A DNA stretch of 63,183 nt from Acidobacteriota bacterium (GCA_022561975.1 JADFQD010000003.1:1-63183), one strand, 5' to 3'; positions 38,447-45,398 are shown, numbered from the stretch's first letter. Translations and numbers: made by a program. Notes: generated by a model not told the origin, from the sequence alone.

Positions 38447-38806
38447 ATGTGGTGCTCGACGTGTCGCGGCGAGTTCGTCGATGAAGTCACAATGTGCCCG
38501 GACTGCGGAACTCCCCTGGTCTCGGAGTTGCCCGAAGGAGAGCAGCTGGACGAGCCCTTGGTGCAGGTCTTTCGGAGCGCCGATAGCTCGCTCTGGCCGG
38601 TGATCAAATCGGTACTTTTGGGAGCCGGGATTCCGCACTTGATTCAGGGCGATGAGGCTCAGGGCCTGTATCCCTTCGGCTCGTTGGGCGGCGGGTCCGA
38701 CGACCGGCTTCTGGGGGCGGTGGTCTTGGTCCCCGAGTCGCGGCGCGAAGCCGCCGAGGCGGTGCTCGAGGAAATCGACGAAACCACCACCGATCAATCT
38801 TCGTAG
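38447..38806 (+). CDS. zinc-ribbon plus DUF2007-like small protein
   Basis: CSTCRGEF...CPDCGTP (CxxC-x12-CxxC), then a VQVFRSAD...IKSVLLGAGIP...VLVPESRREAAEAVL fold typical of DUF2007. Confidence 0.75.
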   Translation: MWCSTCRGEFVDEVTMCPDCGTPLVSELPEGEQLDEPLVQVFRSADSSLWPVIKSVLLGAGIPHLIQGDEAQGLYPFGSLGGGSDDRLLGAVVLVPESRREAAEAVLEEIDETTTDQSS

Positions 38807-38831
38807 CCCGTCTCTGTTGTTCAGGGCGACC

Positions 38832-40148
38832 ATGGCACCCAGCTCGTCTCGCCGGACTCCGCTCACCGCGGCCGATAGCGCCTGGCTGCGGATGGAGGAT
38901 TCGACCAATCTCATGACCATCACCAGCGTCATGACGTTTCGTCAACCACTGGCCTTCGAGGCGCTTTGCCGACGGGTGGAGTCGACCTTTCTTCCCTACG
39001 ATCGTTTCCGTATGCGGGTGGCCGACCCCAAGGGCAAGCTCGGCAAGCCCGCTTGGGTGGAGGCTGACTTTCGGCTCGACCAGCACATTGTTCGAATCGA
39101 GCTTTCACCGGCCGACGACAGGCAGGCCCTTCGGGATTTCGTCAGCCAGGAGATGTCGACTCCGCTCGACTTTGCCCGGCCGCTGTGGAAGTTTTATTTC
39201 ATCGAGAGCTTTCGCGGCGGGTCGGCACTGGTGAGCCGGATTCATCACTGTATCGGTGACGGGATTTCTCTGATGAAGGTGGTGCTCGGAATGACCGATC
39301 CGGAAGCTGATGCTCCGGAAGCCGCGAAGGTTGGTGCCCACGGACAGGGAGCCGGTGGTCACGGGCCCTTGGTTTCGGGCTCGAGACTTCTGCGGGTACT
39401 CAAGGCCGGAGGCAGCATCACGCGGTCTTTGGGACATCTCTTGTCGATGCGCGCGGACCCGAAGACCCTCTTCAAGGGACCGCTTGGCAAAGAGAAGCGA
39501 GCGACCTGGTCGGCCGAAATACCTTTGGCAACGGTGAAAGCGATCGGCAAGAGCATGGGCGCTACGGTCAACGACGTACTCTTGGCCGCAGTGACCGAGA
39601 CCTTGCGCACCTACCTGGCCGGTCGTGGCGAGGCCGCTCCCGAGCGGGACGTGCGGGCGGTGGTTCCGGTCAACATTCGTGCTGCCGGGGACGACGCACT
39701 CGGCAACCAGTTCGGCCTCGTCTACCTGGCGCTTCCGGTTGCCGAGACCGGCTCCCGCGAGCGGGTTCTGGCGATCAAAGAGCGAATGGACCGGCTCAAG
39801 AAATCGCCGGAAGCCCTTGTGGTGTACGCGGTGCTTAAGGCCCTGGGCGCTACCCACGCGGGGCTTCAGAGCAAGGTGATCAAGCTGCTCAGCAAGAACG
39901 CGACGGCAGTGGTGACCAACGTGCCTGGCCCGCGCCGCCCGCTCCACGTATGCGGCTGCGAGATCGACGACATGATGTTCTGGGTGCCGCAGTCCGGCCG
40001 CTTGGGCCTAGGAGTCAGCATTCTCAGCTACAACGATCAAGTGCGTGTCGGCGTCGCCACCGACGCGGGACTGGTGCCGGATCCCGAGGCCTTGACGAAG
40101 GGCTTCGAACGTGCGATCCGGGAGCTGGAGAAAAGCGCTCTCGGCTGA
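38832..40148 (+). CDS. wax ester synthase/diacylglycerol acyltransferase (WS/DGAT)
   Basis: Active-site HHxxxDG (RIHHCIGDGIS). N-terminal LTAADSAWLRMED. C-terminal NVPGP motif (VVTNVPGPRRPL). Confidence 0.9.
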   Translation: MAPSSSRRTPLTAADSAWLRMEDSTNLMTITSVMTFRQPLAFEALCRRVESTFLPYDRFRMRVADPKGKLGKPAWVEADFRLDQHIVRIELSPADDRQALRDFVSQEMSTPLDFARPLWKFYFIESFRGGSALVSRIHHCIGDGISLMKVVLGMTDPEADAPEAAKVGAHGQGAGGHGPLVSGSRLLRVLKAGGSITRSLGHLLSMRADPKTLFKGPLGKEKRATWSAEIPLATVKAIGKSMGATVNDVLLAAVTETLRTYLAGRGEAAPERDVRAVVPVNIRAAGDDALGNQFGLVYLALPVAETGSRERVLAIKERMDRLKKSPEALVVYAVLKALGATHAGLQSKVIKLLSKNATAVVTNVPGPRRPLHVCGCEIDDMMFWVPQSGRLGLGVSILSYNDQVRVGVATDAGLVPDPEALTKGFERAIRELEKSALG

Positions 40149-40184
40149 AGCGACGCGCTGTTGAAGGGAAGCCCAAACGCCAGC

Positions 40185-41708
40185 TCAGCTCTCGGCTGGG
40201 CGTACCACCTTGAGAAACATGCAGTATCCGGTGTCGTCGTAGACGATCTCGCTACTCGAAGGCTCGGGCTTCAGGCCCCTTGCCAGACTCAGCATCTGCT
40301 CAGGCTCTCGGTACTCGAGGATCCACGCACTGACGTACTCCATCATCCAGGAGGAGTCAGCGCAGTCTCTCAGGTTGCCGATGAACAGACGACCACCTGG
40401 AGCTAGCATGGAATAGAGACGCCGGGTCAGTCGCGCGGTCAGCGGCTGAGGCAAGTAATCATAAAGGCCCGCGGAATAGATCAAGTCGATGTCTCTCAAG
40501 TTGGAGGAGACGAACTCTCGCTCCTTCCGGTCTTTCGGACTGAGCACTTGCAGGATCGACAGGTGGAGGCAGTTCAAGCTCAGAGCTTCGCCGTCTCTGG
40601 GCCGCGAGAGGAGCGCGCGGTTCAGCTCCTCATTGCAGTAGCGCATCGTCTCTTCGTCTTGGTCGACAAGGATCAGCTCCACCGGATGAGCGATGGGTCC
40701 GATTTCTCGAATGAGGCGTTGAAGCTCGAGCGCCGGTCCGCAGGCCAGAGACATGATGCGAATGGGCCGATCCAAGGACGTCACGGTCTGGCTCGCGGCT
40801 ATGAGCAGGGTCTTTTCACGGGACCGGACTGCTCGTCCCAGAGTGTAGTTCTGGGTAAGAAAGTGCAGGAAGCGGCCGAAAATGCCCTCTCCCTCGAGAA
40901 CGTCCGTCATAAGCAGAAGCATGAGCTTGTAGTCGCCGGCGTAGCCCAACGGCTTCTCGAACGCTCTGCTGTGAATCGGACAAGGGTAGACCAGGGATAG
41001 GAGCTCACGGCCGGCATAGCCGCGGGCCACCGTGGCGACATCTTCGTCGAAGGCACGCGACTGTGCGTGAAGCTGACTGAGCTGTTCGTGGAAAGGACCC
41101 TTCCATTTCTCGAAGATGCGTTCGATGAGTGCTCGCTCTTCGCGTGCCCTTGCGTCTGGGTCTTTGCTCAGCATAGCTTCCGATTCGCGAAGTACGTCTC
41201 GTGCACTCAGGAGCATCTGACGTATTCTGGCAACGGCGGCTCGCCAGTCGGCTGGCAGAGTCTCGACGGCCCGGCGGTCTTGCTCAAGATGGGCCGCGAG
41301 TAGCGTCTCGATGACATTGTCACTCAGGTACAGGAGCTGGAGATCGAACAGGTTTGACGTGAATTGCAGACCCGCACGAGCTGGTGGGCCCTCGACGTTG
41401 TAAACAGCCTTGGCTTGACCCTCCCAGACGCGGGAATCCCGGTAGTCGATCTTCAGGTCATCGACCAAGCAGCCCGGGAGCAGGTCGACCCTCGAGCTGA
41501 GTTCTAATGCGACTCCGGTCGGAGAAATATCGACGATCGCTATGGGTCCGATGCTCACTCCGTCGAGAATAAACTGACAAGAGAGATCGAAGCGCAGGTC
41601 TTCCGAGGTCAAGCGGCGAGGCCTGAATCTAAGGGATTCGACGCCGCCGATGAGGTCGGAGTGCGAAGCGCCCAGATCGTCCCGGGCAAGTTTCACGGGG
41701 CTACTCAT
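40185..41708 (-). CDS. PilZ domain fused to a class I SAM-dependent methyltransferase (PhcB-like)
   Basis: PilZ motifs RFRPR (RxxxR) and DISPTG (DxSxxG). KPLGYAGDY. SAM motif I IMSLACGPALE. Post-I LILVDQD. YSAGLYDYL. APGGRLFIGN. Lower GC3 than the flanking genes. Confidence 0.85.
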   Translation of the reverse strand: MSSPVKLARDDLGASHSDLIGGVESLRFRPRRLTSEDLRFDLSCQFILDGVSIGPIAIVDISPTGVALELSSRVDLLPGCLVDDLKIDYRDSRVWEGQAKAVYNVEGPPARAGLQFTSNLFDLQLLYLSDNVIETLLAAHLEQDRRAVETLPADWRAAVARIRQMLLSARDVLRESEAMLSKDPDARAREERALIERIFEKWKGPFHEQLSQLHAQSRAFDEDVATVARGYAGRELLSLVYPCPIHSRAFEKPLGYAGDYKLMLLLMTDVLEGEGIFGRFLHFLTQNYTLGRAVRSREKTLLIAASQTVTSLDRPIRIMSLACGPALELQRLIREIGPIAHPVELILVDQDEETMRYCNEELNRALLSRPRDGEALSLNCLHLSILQVLSPKDRKEREFVSSNLRDIDLIYSAGLYDYLPQPLTARLTRRLYSMLAPGGRLFIGNLRDCADSSWMMEYVSAWILEYREPEQMLSLARGLKPEPSSSEIVYDDTGYCMFLKVVRPAES

Positions 41709-41769
41709 GAACAAACCAACGGCAGCTATTTCTTCAAAGTTGTAGTGGGTGCGTCGAAGGAGGCTATGA

Positions 41770-44484
41770 TTGCACAGAAAAGTGGACAGCGCATCTCAAT
41801 CGATAGGCAAGCAGCCGCTCGAAGACCGGCCGCCGGATTCGGCTACCGGCGAATCCCGCGGCTCGTTGAGAGAGATGGGCAGGCAAAAAGGCTTCGACCG
41901 TGTGTACTCGGCAGAGGTTAAGCAACTACTGCTCGAGAGAACGCGGTTGGCGGTTCCGGTCGGAATGCTGCTTTTTGGCGCGTTCTGGATCCTGGATCTG
42001 ATTTCGGCACGGGAACACGTTCAGACGTTCCTGTACATACGACTCATCGTTGTGGCTCTGTCGGCAGCCACTTTGTGGTTGACCTATACGCGAGTGGGAC
42101 AGAAATACCTGGTTCCCGTATCGGCGGGGATGATTCTGTTTGCGTCCGTAGGTATGTCGCTCATGACGATGTATCTTGGTGGTTTCGGAAGCGACTACTA
42201 CTTCGGCAATCTTCTAGCTCTTTTCCTCGTCGGACTTTTCATGCCGTGGCAATTAAGCGTGACGGTTCTTTTCTCGTTCGCGCTCTGCGTTGGGTACTTC
42301 GGTATCAATGTTTTCGTTCACGGCGCCAGCCTCGAGATGGTGCCCCCGGCCTTCTTTATGGTGGGCACGGCTGTTTTCACATGCATCGCCACCGTGGTCG
42401 GAGATCGACTGCGTCGGCGAGACTTGGCTCTTAGGTTGAGGCTGGAGAAAGCCAACGAAGACCTAAAGGAACTCGACAAGGCCAAAACAACTTTCTTTGC
42501 CAATGTGAGCCACGAGCTTCGCACACCGCTAACGCTGATGCTCGGTCCGGTTGAGACGCTTCTGAAAGAAGAACAGAGCGAAGACCACCGAACGCTGTTG
42601 CGAGCGATGCTTGCCAACTCGCATAGATTGCTGCGTCACGTGAACCTACTTCTGGACACGGCGAAGCTCGAAGCCGGCCAGTTGCAACTCAACCTCGCCG
42701 TCGGCAGTTTGTCCGATCTCATTCGGGACCTGGTCACGGCGAGCCTGCCCCACGCCGGGCGAAAAGGGGTCGAGATTGTAACCGAGGGTTTCGAGACTCT
42801 GCCGGACGTCTCGTTCGACGCGGACAAAGTCGAGATGATTGCCGCCAACTTGCTTTCGAATGCGCTCAAGTTCACCCCTGACGGTGGACGAATCGTTGTT
42901 CGGGCTCGGACCGAGGTTGGTGTCGTAATCTTCGAAGTCGAAGATAACGGCCCTGGAATACCGCAGGACCAACGCGGATTGATCTTCGATCGGTTCCATC
43001 AGGTCGACAGCAGTCTGACGCGGAAGGAAGAGGGCACCGGGCTAGGGTTGGCCCTTGCACGGGAACTCGCTCGACTCCACGGTGGTGATGTTGTGGTGGA
43101 GAGCGAAGTCGGCAGAGGCTCGGTCTTTCGGGTCACTTTGCCACGGGAGTCTGACCTGGCCGGCGACCGCAGGGTCGGCCCGCGGAGGAGAGAAGATCAG
43201 ATGGTTCGGGCTCGCGCTGACGCCATGGCGCGGCGGGAGTACCAGCGGCGGTCGCGTCAAGAAACGCTTCTCGCCGACATCCACCAACCGCGGCTCTCGG
43301 ACGAGTCACTCGAGCAGAAGGAGGGGCCCCCGGGGGCGCCGCTGATTCTCGTGGTTGACGACAATGCCGATCTCAGAGCCTACTTGGCGAGCGAATTGTC
43401 CCGTGAGTACCGAGTGACCACCGCCGTAGACGGAGTCGAGGGCTTGAAGACGGCGCTCAAGCTGCGCCCGCAGCTCGTAATCGCGGACGTGATGATGCCG
43501 AGAATGAGCGGCTATGAGCTCTGTCGGCGGTTGCGCGCGGAATCGATGATGAAGGCCACCCCGATAATTCTGGTGACCGCCAAGGCCGGCTCGGAGGCCG
43601 TCGTCGAGGGACTCGAGGTCGGAGCGGACGACTACGTGACCAAACCCTTCTCCATGGAGGAGCTAAGGGCTCGGATCGCGGCCCAGTTGCGGGCCAAAAC
43701 CATCGAAAGCCAGTTGAGCGAGCGTGAGACACGCTTGGCAGCGATTGGTCATATGACCAGTACGGTGGTGCACGACTTGCGCAACGCCCTGACCTTGATC
43801 AAGGGCTATTCGGATCTTGCGCATTCGATCGCCGTGGGCGGCGGGCACCAAGACGAGTTGGTAGCTGATATCGAGCAGGTGCAATCCGCGACACTGAGAC
43901 TGCAGAGAATGGCCACCGAGATTCTGGAGTATGCGCGCGGAGGGGCTACCGAACTGAGCCTGGTCGAGATTCCGGTCAGGGACTACCTCCGTGGGACGCT
44001 CGAGCCGATGAAGAAACACCTTGCGAGCCAAGGTGTCGAGTTGAGATTTCGAGATGAGCTACCCTCGGACTTCATGGTCAAACTGGACCCAGACCGATTC
44101 GCCAGGGTTCTCGAGAACTTGGTTGGCAACGCCCGCGATGCTCTCGTAAATCACCCGGGCACTCGAATTGTTTTCGTTCTGAGTGAGATCGCGGAAGGAT
44201 CTTTCCGCGTCAGGATCGCCGATACCGGACCGGGGATTCCACCCGAGCTGGTTGACTCGCTGTTCGAGCCGTTTGCCACCGGCAAGAGCAAAGGCACTGG
44301 ACTCGGGCTGGTCACGGTCCGTAATCTGGTCAAAGCGCATGGCGGTCACGTAGACGTGGAGCCGAAAGCGGAAGAGGGCGGCGCCGCATTCACCGTCCGA
44401 ATTCCAATCGACGACGGATCGAGAACGGACTTGTCGAACGATGTCGCGGGGTCCGGTCAGCCCCGGGCACCAGCGCCAAACTAA
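41770..44484 (+). CDS. membrane sensor kinase with HK-REC-HK architecture
   Basis: TTG start 6 nt after GGAGG (41759-41763). About 5-6 TM helices. H-box SHELRTPL (H248), N/G boxes, GTGLGLALAREL. Receiver LVVDDN...IADVMMP (D573)...LVTAK. Second H-box VHDLRNAL (H668) plus DTGPGIP, GTGLGLVTV. Confidence 0.9.
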   Translation: MHRKVDSASQSIGKQPLEDRPPDSATGESRGSLREMGRQKGFDRVYSAEVKQLLLERTRLAVPVGMLLFGAFWILDLISAREHVQTFLYIRLIVVALSAATLWLTYTRVGQKYLVPVSAGMILFASVGMSLMTMYLGGFGSDYYFGNLLALFLVGLFMPWQLSVTVLFSFALCVGYFGINVFVHGASLEMVPPAFFMVGTAVFTCIATVVGDRLRRRDLALRLRLEKANEDLKELDKAKTTFFANVSHELRTPLTLMLGPVETLLKEEQSEDHRTLLRAMLANSHRLLRHVNLLLDTAKLEAGQLQLNLAVGSLSDLIRDLVTASLPHAGRKGVEIVTEGFETLPDVSFDADKVEMIAANLLSNALKFTPDGGRIVVRARTEVGVVIFEVEDNGPGIPQDQRGLIFDRFHQVDSSLTRKEEGTGLGLALARELARLHGGDVVVESEVGRGSVFRVTLPRESDLAGDRRVGPRRREDQMVRARADAMARREYQRRSRQETLLADIHQPRLSDESLEQKEGPPGAPLILVVDDNADLRAYLASELSREYRVTTAVDGVEGLKTALKLRPQLVIADVMMPRMSGYELCRRLRAESMMKATPIILVTAKAGSEAVVEGLEVGADDYVTKPFSMEELRARIAAQLRAKTIESQLSERETRLAAIGHMTSTVVHDLRNALTLIKGYSDLAHSIAVGGGHQDELVADIEQVQSATLRLQRMATEILEYARGGATELSLVEIPVRDYLRGTLEPMKKHLASQGVELRFRDELPSDFMVKLDPDRFARVLENLVGNARDALVNHPGTRIVFVLSEIAEGSFRVRIADTGPGIPPELVDSLFEPFATGKSKGTGLGLVTVRNLVKAHGGHVDVEPKAEEGGAAFTVRIPIDDGSRTDLSNDVAGSGQPRAPAPN

Positions 44485-45398
44485 CCTTCCTTCTCCAACC
44501 CGTACTTGGCGATGCGTCTGCGAAGGGCGGCCCGTGAGATTCCCAAGGCGTGAGCGGCGGCCACTTGATTTCCGTCGGTGCGTCGGAGCGCTTCTTGAAT
44601 CGCGGCACGTTCGAGTTCGTCGAGTCGAAGCTCGCGCTCACCGCGAAACAGAGTGTGTGCGATTGCGGTCGAAGGCGCAGCCGTCTCGATTTGGTGAATT
44701 CGCCGGGAGTCGATCACCTCTCCGTCGGGGGTTGCGTGAACCGCGCGAAGCACGGCATGCCGAAGTTCGCGCACGTTTCCCGGCCAGTCGCGCTCCGTGA
44801 GAGCTTTGAGCGCAGCGTAGGTGATTCCCTTGACGCGTTTGCCGGTCTCTCTGGAGCTGGCAAGGAAGAAATGTTCCACGAGTGCCGGGATATCGCTCTT
44901 GCGATGCCGGAGCGCGGGAACTTCGAGGACAAAGCCGGCGAGGCGATAGTACAGATCGGGTCGAAAGCGCCCGGTCGAGATGTCTTGGCGCAGATCGTGA
45001 TTCGTGGACGCGACGATTCTGATGTCGAGTGGACGGGAGGAACCGCCTACCGGCTCGACACTTTTTTGCTCCAATACCCGCAACAGCTTGACCTGGAGTT
45101 CTCTTTTCATCTCGCCGATCTCGTCCAGCAGAACCGTGCCGCCATTCGCGGTTTCGAGTTTGCCGGTCCGGGGAGAGACGCCGGTCGCGGCACCGGGCGA
45201 GACTCCAAAGAGTTCGGCCTCCAGCAAGTCGGGCGGGATTGGCGCGCAGTTGATCGGCAAGAACGGGCCGCGAGACCTCTCGGACGAGCGGTGCACGATG
45301 GCCGCTATCGATTCCTTGCCAACGCCCGTTTCGCCCTCAATGAGGACGGGAAGGTCGGAGTCGGCCGCGAAGCGAAGATCCGCGTACAGACGGGTCAT
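44481..45398 (-). CDS. sigma54-interaction-domain AAA+ activator with Fis-type HTH and no N-terminal sensor domain
   Basis: Walker A GETGVGKE, Walker B LLDEIGE, WPGNVRELRH, C-terminal HTH AAAHALGISRAALRRRIAKYGL. The GAFTGA position reads GAATGV. An in-frame stop lies 8 codons upstream of the ATG. Confidence 0.9.
   Translation of the reverse strand: MTRLYADLRFAADSDLPVLIEGETGVGKESIAAIVHRSSERSRGPFLPINCAPIPPDLLEAELFGVSPGAATGVSPRTGKLETANGGTVLLDEIGEMKRELQVKLLRVLEQKSVEPVGGSSRPLDIRIVASTNHDLRQDISTGRFRPDLYYRLAGFVLEVPALRHRKSDIPALVEHFFLASSRETGKRVKGITYAALKALTERDWPGNVRELRHAVLRAVHATPDGEVIDSRRIHQIETAAPSTAIAHTLFRGERELRLDELERAAIQEALRRTDGNQVAAAHALGISRAALRRRIAKYGLEKEG

Follow-up and report, generated by a model that had tools for sequence, protein, structure and literature searches.

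The divergent gene pair at positions 40185 to 44484 of the window (the whole analysed stretch of 63,183 nucleotides) is probably a signal-synthase/receptor cassette of the Phc family, carried by a Thermoanaerobaculia-like (Acidobacteriota) genome and possibly gated by c-di-GMP. Homology and synteny place the methyltransferase in the PhcB family and the sensor among MASE8 sensors of the PhcS kind, and show that the pair stays linked across phyla. Both open reading frames, the 61-nt divergent spacer, the KPLGYAGDY and IMSLACGPALE motifs and residues H248, D573 and H668, on which the sequence-only reading was built, were all present as claimed. The features of the locus are the following:

40185..41708, minus strand: gene for a PilZ + PhcB-family class I SAM methyltransferase, 507 aa (ORF, homology)
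41349..41630, minus strand: predicted PilZ-fold domain, residues ~27-120, with R27xR29xxR32 and D60-I-S62-P-T-G65 (structure models, Foldseek, profile)
40776..41342, minus strand: helical region, residues ~123-311, with the hallmark R248, K252-P-L-G-Y-A-G-D-Y260 and R297 (predicted helices)
40203..40763, minus strand: Rossmann-type SAM methyltransferase core, residues ~316-502, with LACGPALE (motif I), D349, D408 and GGRLFIGN (Pfam, Foldseek, invariant columns)
41709..41769, no strand: divergent intergenic region, 61 nt (sequence)
41770..44484, plus strand: sensor kinase gene, 904 aa, encoding a MASE8-like sensor, HK1, REC and HK2 (Pfam, precomputed MASE8, neighbouring orthologues)
41932..42465, plus strand: membrane-embedded MASE8-like sensor, residues ~55-232 (hydropathy, MASE8, PhcS sensor alignment)
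42466..43164, plus strand: first kinase module HK1, H248, PhoR/BarA-like HisKA + HATPase_c (Pfam, NCBIfam, motifs)
43327..43695, plus strand: receiver domain with D530/D531, D573 and K623 (Pfam Response_reg, E 1.7e-27)
43717..44424, plus strand: second kinase module HK2, H668, AtoS/ZraS-like HisKA + HATPase_c (Pfam, NCBIfam)

The longest version of the methyltransferase ORF starts at a TTG at 41714 and would encode 509 aa; the stop codon of the gene lies 36 nt from the end of a WS/DGAT gene at 40148. The kinase gene starts with TTG, with a GGAGG 6 nt upstream.

By sequence comparison, the 507-aa protein is a true, distant homologue of PhcB, that is, a PhcB-family SAM methyltransferase, in agreement with the sequence-only reading. 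BLASTP aligned it with Cupriavidus PhcB (31% identity over 293 aa, E 2e-36) and with the methyltransferase of a phcBSRQ-type operon of Paraburkholderia (E 4e-38), identity to the operon methyltransferases of these two genera being 29-31% over 293-359 aa. The Cupriavidus phc operon has its genes in the Ralstonia order, and the encoded proteins are of matching size (comparison with PMC8578825); the Cupriavidus Phc proteins are reported to be 56-75% identical to their GMI1000 counterparts (PMC2842291). An hhalign comparison with the Burkholderiales PhcB clade gave 100% probability and E 2e-43 over 422 columns, the homology spanning the whole length of the methyltransferase beyond the PilZ domain and extending outside the generic SAM-binding core. 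When the Paraburkholderia PhcB orthologue is set beside the subfamily of the window protein, 24 columns are invariant, including R248, the K252-Y260 motif and R297. The PhcB-family motifs found were R248, KPLGYAGDY (from residue 252), R297, GxGPAxE, D349, D408..Y411..GLxDY, GGxL..N445 and W462..YR467, and IMSLACGPALE begins at residue 318. Many relatives bear the JGI name [quoted passage not shown], which is JGI's PhcB-type label. Since the identity is about 30%, the enzyme may act on another substrate than PhcB does.

The AlphaFold2 model of the 507-aa protein showed a pLDDT of 90, and its best Foldseek matches were small-molecule methyltransferases (3ocj, PsoF, SgvM and CMeT); the Rossmann core gave weak matches to Pfam Methyltransf_12/23/25. 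It is quite improbable that the enzyme is instead a CheR-like protein carboxyl methyltransferase, which would methylate its partner kinase, or some other protein, in an adaptation process controlled by PilZ and c-di-GMP. In Pseudomonas aeruginosa, MapZ controls CheR1, and MapZ-CheR1 complexes are among the structural matches of the PilZ domain; in addition, the Pfam CheR SAM-binding model matches 23 of the 37 family members (best E 1.2e-5) and the PDB CheR structure 5ftw matches the family profile at E 0.021. A non-homologous PilZ-methyltransferase that stands in for the PhcB-type enzyme beside kinase homologues in other Thermoanaerobaculia also speaks for such a role. However, the CheR similarity covers no more than some 45 residues, within the SAM-binding core that such enzymes have in common, none of the best whole-fold matches is CheR, the homology to PhcB is full-length beyond the PilZ domain, and PMC8578825 treats PhcB as the enzyme that makes a small, diffusible ester.

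The PilZ domain that had been read beside the methyltransferase was borne out, at the N-terminus, by structural modelling. AlphaFold2 gave a pLDDT of 83 for residues 22-150, and in both models the domain consists of six beta strands and a subsequent helix. When the N-terminal domain was compared with the PDB by Foldseek, the first 41 matches were all PilZ domains (probability 0.99-1.00, best E 2e-4). In the profile comparison DISPTG fell in register with the [D/N]xSxxG motif of the PilZ domains of YcgR and PA0012; D60 and S62 are each kept in at least 90% of the sequences and G65 in all. The first PilZ motif is atypical, the family conserving R27xR29xxR32 versus the canonical RxxxR; R27-F-R-P-R31 of the window protein fits RxxxR, yet R31 is not conserved in the family. 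The Pfam PilZ model did not match the window protein even at E<=10, and it matched 7 of the 37 relatives (best E 3e-4). As Pfam gives no match, the PilZ assignment is built on the AlphaFold2 model with its Foldseek matches, which confirm the fold, on the register of DISPTG and on the conservation of R27, R29 and R32. A limited literature search found no link between PilZ and PhcB, and a survey of PilZ domains mentions no such fusion.

In the 904-aa protein Pfam recognised HisKA and HATPase_c twice and Response_reg once. The H-boxes are SHELRTPL (H248) and VHDLRNAL (H668), the N, G1 and G2 boxes are found in both kinase modules, and the catalytic residues of both modules and of the receiver are complete; NCBIfam AtoS and ZraS matched HK2 at residues 646-883. 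Hydropathy indicated about 5-6 hydrophobic segments between residues 59 and 212, so that the sensor would be almost wholly membrane-embedded. MASE8 matched the sensor fragment at E 0.073, and precomputed Pfam assignments give MASE8 on the identical whole protein and on nearly all of its homologues. PhcS, which also carries MASE8, aligned with the sensor segment of the window protein (30.8 bits, E 2e-5).

In the Phc system the membrane sensor histidine kinase is PhcS, with H230 as the phospho-acceptor in Ralstonia, and PhcR is the soluble receiver + histidine-kinase protein of the Phc operon. The 904-aa protein had been equated with PhcS and PhcR fused in one polypeptide, which proved partly right: it is not simply the two joined. 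The true PhcS kinase core (Cupriavidus, Paraburkholderia) clustered with HK2 of the fused proteins in 200/200 bootstraps, its identity being 39% to HK2 versus 24% to HK1, and HK1 formed a clade apart from the PhcS and PhcR kinases. HK1 therefore appears to be without a counterpart in the Phc system, because the PhcS core groups with HK2 and not with HK1. The PhcR kinase core was nearest to the HK2 group in 184/200 bootstraps, the HK2 type being weaker in PhcR than in PhcS. Taken alone, the window protein scores 55-62 bits against the PhcS and PhcR kinase cores, which is a generic level, PhcS giving near-equal scores with its HK1 (55.5 bits) and HK2 (61.6 bits); with HK2 of the planctomycete (L035) and verrucomicrobial fused proteins PhcS reached up to 195 bits. 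Residues 524-878 are collinear with PhcR (27% identity, E 4e-15), at 63.9 bits again a generic level, and an identity of 24% to PhcR is likewise generic. In many genomes the fused gene is accompanied by separate REC-kinase genes built like PhcR, which follow it in many of the loci, so the fusion does not appear to be a plain merger of PhcS and PhcR.

To survey the pairing, 87 loci of the methyltransferase family, the window counted in, were inspected, and a locus was taken as paired when a fused sensor-HK-REC-HK gene lay less than 400 bp away. Of these loci, 51 were paired (37 co-directional, 10 convergent and 4 divergent), and the paired ones belong to Acidobacteriota, Planctomycetota, Myxococcota, Verrucomicrobiota, Proteobacteria and further phyla, the pair occurring in at least seven phyla; at 15 of the 87 no kinase adjoined the methyltransferase. 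The proposed pairing is thus conserved far beyond the close relatives. The absence of an operon, the genes being divergently transcribed, and of a shared promoter signal in the 61-nt spacer, where matches to the sigma-70 and sigma-54 consensus did not exceed chance, would fit two functionally unrelated neighbours. Such incidental adjacency is hardly credible and is largely refuted by the survey: the pairing is more than chance because it recurs in 51/87 loci from many phyla, in three orientations, and it is still there at 50% and 40-45% identity, amid different flanking genes. The sequence-only reading had also regarded a fused, PilZ-gated version as undescribed; a limited literature search found no paper on it, nor any study of the gene pair outside the Burkholderiales, but the fused form is no rarity, being the commonest arrangement in the survey.

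The connection to fatty-acyl enzymes that had been drawn from the neighbouring genes did not hold. Among the loci surveyed, a WS/DGAT gene near the pair was confined to the closest relatives (L002 and L003, 76%; L011, 45%) and absent from all the others. This linkage bears on a rather unlikely alternative, cell-autonomous lipid or envelope homeostasis instead of quorum sensing, in which the methyltransferase would modify a lipid of the membrane or some free fatty acid, to be used by the cell itself, the MASE8 kinase would monitor membrane composition and adjust expression, and c-di-GMP would tie the process to lifestyle. The adjoining WS/DGAT gene and an acyl-reductase-like gene about 9 kb from the pair, both present in the window and its closest relatives, are consistent with homeostasis, as is the membrane-embedded nature of the sensor. 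A phmmer search of the 63-kb window with the window's domains and the C-terminal part of PhcQ, which found neither a PhcQ-like gene nor a PhcR-like gene of its own nor any further receiver, points the same way. Against homeostasis, the WS/DGAT linkage is confined to those three relatives, close synthase-receptor pairing across phyla is typical of signal systems, and the sole characterised members of these families are PhcB, which makes a secreted signal, and PhcS, which senses it (PMC8578825, PMC11960443).

In the preferred reading, a Phc-family signalling cassette, the methyltransferase would esterify a small lipid acid at its carboxyl group and so give a hydrophobic, diffusible methyl ester. 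The analogy with PhcB, whose product is methyl 3-hydroxymyristate or methyl 3-hydroxypalmitate, suggests a 3-hydroxy fatty acid as the substrate. The ester would enter the membrane and be sensed there by the MASE8 helices of the kinase. HK1 would then autophosphorylate at H248 and pass the phosphoryl group to D573 of the same protein, the state of the receiver would govern the activity of HK2 (H668), and HK2 would act on a response regulator encoded outside the window. The fused PilZ domain probably couples signal synthesis to c-di-GMP, or else serves as a docking module, and this is the most speculative step. A c-di-GMP link in relatives counts in favour of the cassette reading: kinase homologues at 53% identity share their operons with a REC-HD-GYP-type protein and with another methyltransferase, one that bears a canonical PilZ domain.

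As a tentative and somewhat doubtful extension, lipid methyl ester signalling of the Phc type might reach beyond Ralstonia and Cupriavidus and be a widespread, unrecognised cell-cell family in Acidobacteriota, Planctomycetota, Myxococcota and Verrucomicrobiota. Its ancestral form would then combine a PilZ/c-di-GMP-gated synthase with a two-step kinase cascade in one polypeptide, and the Burkholderiales systems would be reduced, having lost the PilZ motifs and HK1-REC.

Compared with the known systems, the window methyltransferase is homologous to PhcB over ~350-420 residues, comprising the helical region and the Rossmann core, and like PhcB it is encoded beside a MASE8 histidine kinase. It differs in its low identity, in being divergent from the kinase gene whereas the PhcB gene lies in an operon, and in keeping PilZ-type motifs at an N-terminus that in the Burkholderiales clade lacks them and is not detectably PilZ by sequence. 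The Ralstonia phcBSRQ/PhcA system has a co-directional phcB-phcS-phcR-phcQ operon with separate PhcR and PhcQ, whereas the window holds the divergent pair only. Like PhcS, the kinase has a membrane-embedded sensor of the MASE8 type ahead of HisKA/HATPase; aligned pairwise, the two match through the transmembrane region, and the PhcS core shares a clade with HK2 of the fused proteins. Unlike PhcS, the window kinase is twice as long, carries an extra HK1-REC between the sensor and the PhcS-type core, and has a diverged HK2. PhcR shows the same domain order as residues 524-878 and likewise no DNA-binding domain, but is a stand-alone, soluble protein, whereas REC-HK2 of the window belongs to a membrane protein, as its C-terminal half. 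Finally, the N-terminal domain shares with the canonical PilZ domains of YcgR, Alg44, BcsA and MapZ the six-stranded barrel with a C-terminal helix, the [D/N]hSxxG motif (DISPTG) and an arginine-rich N-terminal loop, and differs from them in its R27xR29xxR32 motif, in falling below the Pfam threshold and in its fusion to a PhcB-type methyltransferase.

The methyltransferase and kinase genes lie in the window on opposite strands and are separated by a spacer of 61 nt (ORF calls, sequence), in agreement with the sequence-only reading. The genes of this region are:

From about 31400 downward: Epimerase/NAD_binding_4 acyl-reductase-like gene, about 9 kb from the methyltransferase gene.
38447–38806, plus strand: zinc-ribbon and DUF2007 gene.
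38829–40148, plus strand: wax-ester synthase/DGAT (WS/DGAT) gene, ending 36 nt from the methyltransferase gene.
40185–41708, minus strand: methyltransferase gene, 507 aa; the longest form starts at TTG 41714.
41770–44484, plus strand: kinase gene, 904 aa, TTG start.
44481–45398, minus strand: sigma-54 activator gene, 305 aa, with AAA+ and HTH_8; convergent with the kinase gene, with a 4-nt overlap at its end.

A GGAGG sequence was found 6 nt upstream of the kinase TTG start, and sigma-54 and sigma-70 scans of the spacer gave no match exceeding chance. The 904-aa protein was matched in Pfam by two HisKA/HATPase_c modules (HK1 and HK2) and one receiver; H248, D573 and H668 were verified, and N, G1 and G2 boxes were found in each of the two kinase modules. 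The 507-aa protein contained the motifs KPLGYAGDY (from residue 252) and IMSLACGPALE (from residue 318); its class I methyltransferase matches in Pfam all fell below threshold. The G+C content over positions 40001–44000, covering the pair, was 0.59, as compared with 0.62–0.65 in the flanks, which could reflect a different origin or just a different gene composition.

In the Cupriavidus locus, genes for a methyltransferase (463 aa), a MASE8-HisKA-HATPase protein (443 aa), a REC-HisKA-HATPase protein (381 aa) and a REC protein (332 aa) follow one another in the order phcBSRQ, and their sizes agree with those published for Ralstonia PhcB (464–468 aa), PhcR (368–374 aa) and PhcQ (336–337 aa) (PMC8578825). 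For C. necator JMP134, a complete Phc system with 56–75% identity to that of GMI1000 has been reported (PMC2842291). Tblastn of plasmids revealed an operon in Paraburkholderia graminis with a methyltransferase of 468 aa, a MASE8 kinase of 445 aa, a receiver and a 344-aa receiver protein; among the matches listed, this methyltransferase groups with those of Cupriavidus, Massilia, Janthinobacterium and Pseudoduganella in a tight Burkholderiales clade (65–92% identity). Since the Cupriavidus order and sizes fit Ralstonia and the JMP134 system is 56–75% identical, these operons were taken as the Phc reference, and the Phc comparisons rest on Cupriavidus and Paraburkholderia sequences standing in for the chromosomal Ralstonia locus.

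The window methyltransferase was 29% identical to the Paraburkholderia enzyme (359 aa, E 4e-38) and 31% identical to that of Cupriavidus (293 aa, E 2e-36). Twenty-four invariant columns were common to the subfamily of the window enzyme and the Paraburkholderia orthologue, including R248, KPxGxxGD, R297, G324, E328, D349, D408, Y411, GLxDY, G439, N445, W462 and YR467, and profile-profile comparison with the Burkholderiales PhcB clade (hhalign) gave a probability of 100% (E 2e-43, 422 columns). The assignment of the enzyme to the PhcB type was thus upheld. Its nearest relatives were found in Thermoanaerobaculia MAGs (76–81% identity), and in a large protein collection relatives often carry the JGI name 'extracellular factor (EF) 3-hydroxypalmitic acid methyl ester biosynthesis protein'. 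Clustered at 50% identity, the family comprised 5,607 representatives at E ≤ 1e-3, 4,010 at E ≤ 1e-10 and 1,311 at E ≤ 1e-30. The AlphaFold2 model (pLDDT 90) comprised a beta domain (residues 42–116), long helices (123–311) and a Rossmann core (316–502); the top PDB matches in whole-protein Foldseek were small-molecule methyltransferases (3ocj, PsoF, SgvM and PKS C-methyltransferases). Relatives of the helical and Rossmann part (residues ~205–500, without PilZ; 26–31% identity) were observed on 123 Rhizobium plasmids or chromids, and one more PilZ-less relative, adjoining a HAMP histidine kinase, on a Pseudanabaena plasmid.

The Pfam PilZ profile did not match the window methyltransferase even at E ≤ 10; among 37 relatives it matched 7 (best E 3e-4). 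When the PDB was searched with a profile of this domain, only PilZ proteins came up at E < 0.6 (YcgR, E 0.16; PA0012, E 0.33), with DLSxTG aligned on their [D/N]xSxxG. Since whole-protein Foldseek returned methyltransferases only, the N-terminal domain was modelled alone. The model of residues 22–150 (pLDDT 83) showed six strands and a helix, and its first 41 Foldseek matches were all PilZ (best E 2e-4, probability 0.99–1.00), including YcgR, the PA4608-like 4xrn, Alg44, BcsA, MrkH, MotI, PlzA and MapZ. The N-terminal domain is thus predicted to be a PilZ fold, with a weak signal in sequence and a clear one in the model, which bears out the earlier assignment of this domain. The second c-di-GMP motif is complete (D60-I-S62-P-T-G65). 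The first is non-canonical, with conserved arginines R27, R29 and R32, and the window sequence RFRPR meets RxxxR only via a non-conserved residue. The pattern RxxR...[DN]x[SA]xxG was present in 44 of the 90 surveyed methyltransferases and, within this family, absent from the verrucomicrobial group and the Burkholderiales PhcB clade. On sequence profiles, the N-terminus of Burkholderiales PhcB, which may be a degenerate PilZ, gave an hhalign probability of 13% against PilZ and no PilZ match in the PDB search.

Conservation of the pairing was followed through related loci. Next to a methyltransferase at 76% identity, a gene of about 880 aa for a MASE8-HK-REC-HK protein was found, divergent and with WS/DGAT present; at 50% identity the pair was again divergent, with different remaining neighbours. 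Two loci at ~40–45% identity, one from a Planctomycetota MAG and one from a 1-Mb JGI metagenome contig, had convergent genes followed by a stand-alone receiver. On metagenome contig L006 the fused kinase was not beside the methyltransferase. With one genome scanned per species, at least 600 stretches were obtained, 595 of them confirmed; 80 loci were kept, from Acidobacteriota, Myxococcota, Planctomycetota, Verrucomicrobiota, Alpha- and Gammaproteobacteria, Methylomirabilota and others. ORFs were called and domains labelled by phmmer, giving 87 loci with the methyltransferase, the window counted in. A fused sensor-HK-REC-HK gene, the commonest receptor type, was located within 400 bp of the methyltransferase in 51 of the 87 (37 co-directional, 10 convergent, 4 divergent); in 15 the adjacent kinase was missing, and in 21 the sensor-kinase gene was truly shorter or interrupted by a contig end. 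The survey thus bears out the pairing proposed earlier: in many environmental phyla, the PhcB-type methyltransferase and a MASE8 kinase are conserved as a pair.

Two further arrangements were observed. In eight loci with a convergent fused kinase (L005, L007, L013, L014, L018, L019, L022, L026; five are Planctomycetota or Planctomycetales MAGs, and the L005 protein is named Planctomycetota), a stand-alone receiver of 121–141 aa regularly comes after the kinase, divergent from it; this receiver is a candidate partner of HK2, and such a gene is missing from the window. In a second group (L031, L037, L052, L060, L064, L066–L072, L074, L076, L079–L081, L084, L085, L089), nearly all Verrucomicrobiota MAGs, with L060 from Candidatus Limnocylindria, the methyltransferase and fused sensor-HK-REC-HK genes are followed by one or two separate REC-kinase genes (~416–447 aa); the pattern RxxR...[DN]xSxxG was not found in the methyltransferases of these loci.

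WS/DGAT and DUF2007 genes were close to the pair only in the nearest relatives (L002, L003, L011). The sigma-54 activator, which lacks a receiver and any other regulatory domain at its N-terminus, adjoined the pair in the window and in no related locus. Because none of the three is kept with the pair, they were rejected as parts of the module. Of the proposed association with fatty-acyl enzymes, the proximity of WS/DGAT (36 nt) and the reductase (~9 kb) holds in the window, and the WS/DGAT linkage is limited to the nearest relatives.

For the PhcB-family enzyme and the MASE8 kinase, which homology and conserved gene neighbourhood show to be present together across phyla, the following route may be proposed. 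The enzyme would produce a hydrophobic methyl ester sensed inside the membrane; phosphate would move from H248 to D573, the receiver would govern HK2 (H668), and HK2 would pass the signal to a regulator encoded outside the window. Phmmer with the domains of the window proteins and the C-terminal part of PhcQ found no further receiver, PhcQ-like ORF or separate receiver-kinase ORF in the 63-kb window. The PilZ domain may tie synthesis to c-di-GMP, a link supported by retention of the motifs in about half of the family and by the location of kinase homologues near HD-GYP/PilZ proteins. Two Thermoanaerobaculia contigs (L093:649-7601 and L094:545-7613) carry window-kinase homologues (53% identity) in a co-directional operon encoding REC-HD_5 (HD-GYP type), a PilZ-methyltransferase protein of 1,072–1,076 aa and MASE8-HK-REC-HK. 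In the second protein, Pfam detects a canonical PilZ domain (E 1.9e-14) and, at the C-terminus, a Methyltransf_23/11 domain that is not PhcB-type; PilZ and methyltransferase beside such a kinase therefore recur with a non-homologous enzyme.

Quorum sensing is little known beyond Proteobacteria and Firmicutes. In the literature found, the Phc system was described for Ralstonia and Cupriavidus only, and a limited search yielded no paper tying PhcB-like enzymes to PilZ or to the surveyed phyla, in line with the view that the fused, PilZ-bearing variant is undescribed; kinase homologues bear only generic names in source annotations. This cassette of the Phc family, in which the synthase bears PilZ and the receptor has two kinases, is frequent in genomes and uncharacterised. 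Should the product of the enzyme be a diffusible ester, signalling could be tested in uncultured lineages of soil and water, the evolution of PhcS and PhcR would have to be reconsidered, and the enzyme would be, as far as known, the first signal synthase to carry a c-di-GMP receptor domain of its own. If no such ester is made, the pair nonetheless offers a well-defined target with a clear assay.

The kinase had been read as PhcS and PhcR in one polypeptide. Its residues 75–459 aligned with PhcS (24%, E 3e-19), spanning the membrane part, and residues 524–878 with PhcR (27%, E 4e-15), both collinearly; the PhcS sensor matched the window sensor with 30.8 bits (E 2e-5). The architecture thus agrees with a fusion, but the kinase cores do not. 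Residues ~185–441 of Cupriavidus PhcS matched fused proteins of planctomycetes (L035, L073) and verrucomicrobia in their second kinase, with up to 43% identity (195 bits), group means for the PhcS core were 110 bits to HK2 versus 56 to HK1, the latter similarity being generic, and a neighbour-joining tree (capped distances) placed PhcS within the HK2 sequences. Nearest-group bootstraps were used because the groups are not monophyletic and bipartition bootstraps uninformative: PhcS was nearest to HK2 in 200/200 column bootstraps (39% versus 24% identity), and the PhcR core in 184/200, at 24% identity only. Taken by itself, the window protein gave a flat signal (PhcS core, 61.6 bits to HK2 and 55.5 to HK1; PhcR core, 56.6 and 38.5). 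HK1 is a PhoR/BarA-like module without counterpart in the Burkholderiales system, and in many verrucomicrobial and myxobacterial loci separate receiver-kinase genes of PhcR architecture come after the fused gene. From these comparisons, the 904-aa protein is most fairly described as a putative PhcS-type receptor in which an HK1-REC insertion separates the sensor from the PhcS-type core; no less plausibly, PhcS could be the version that lost the HK1-REC module. Because the receiver lies upstream of the second kinase, the function of the protein would still resemble PhcS feeding PhcR.

In loci L041 and L046, the methyltransferase adjoins a shorter sensor-kinase with a core of HK1 type (200/200 bootstraps), followed in L041 by separate receiver, kinase and REC-kinase genes. 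This arrangement resembles a split version of the fused gene and is distinct from the Burkholderiales system, in which PhcS has a core of HK2 type.
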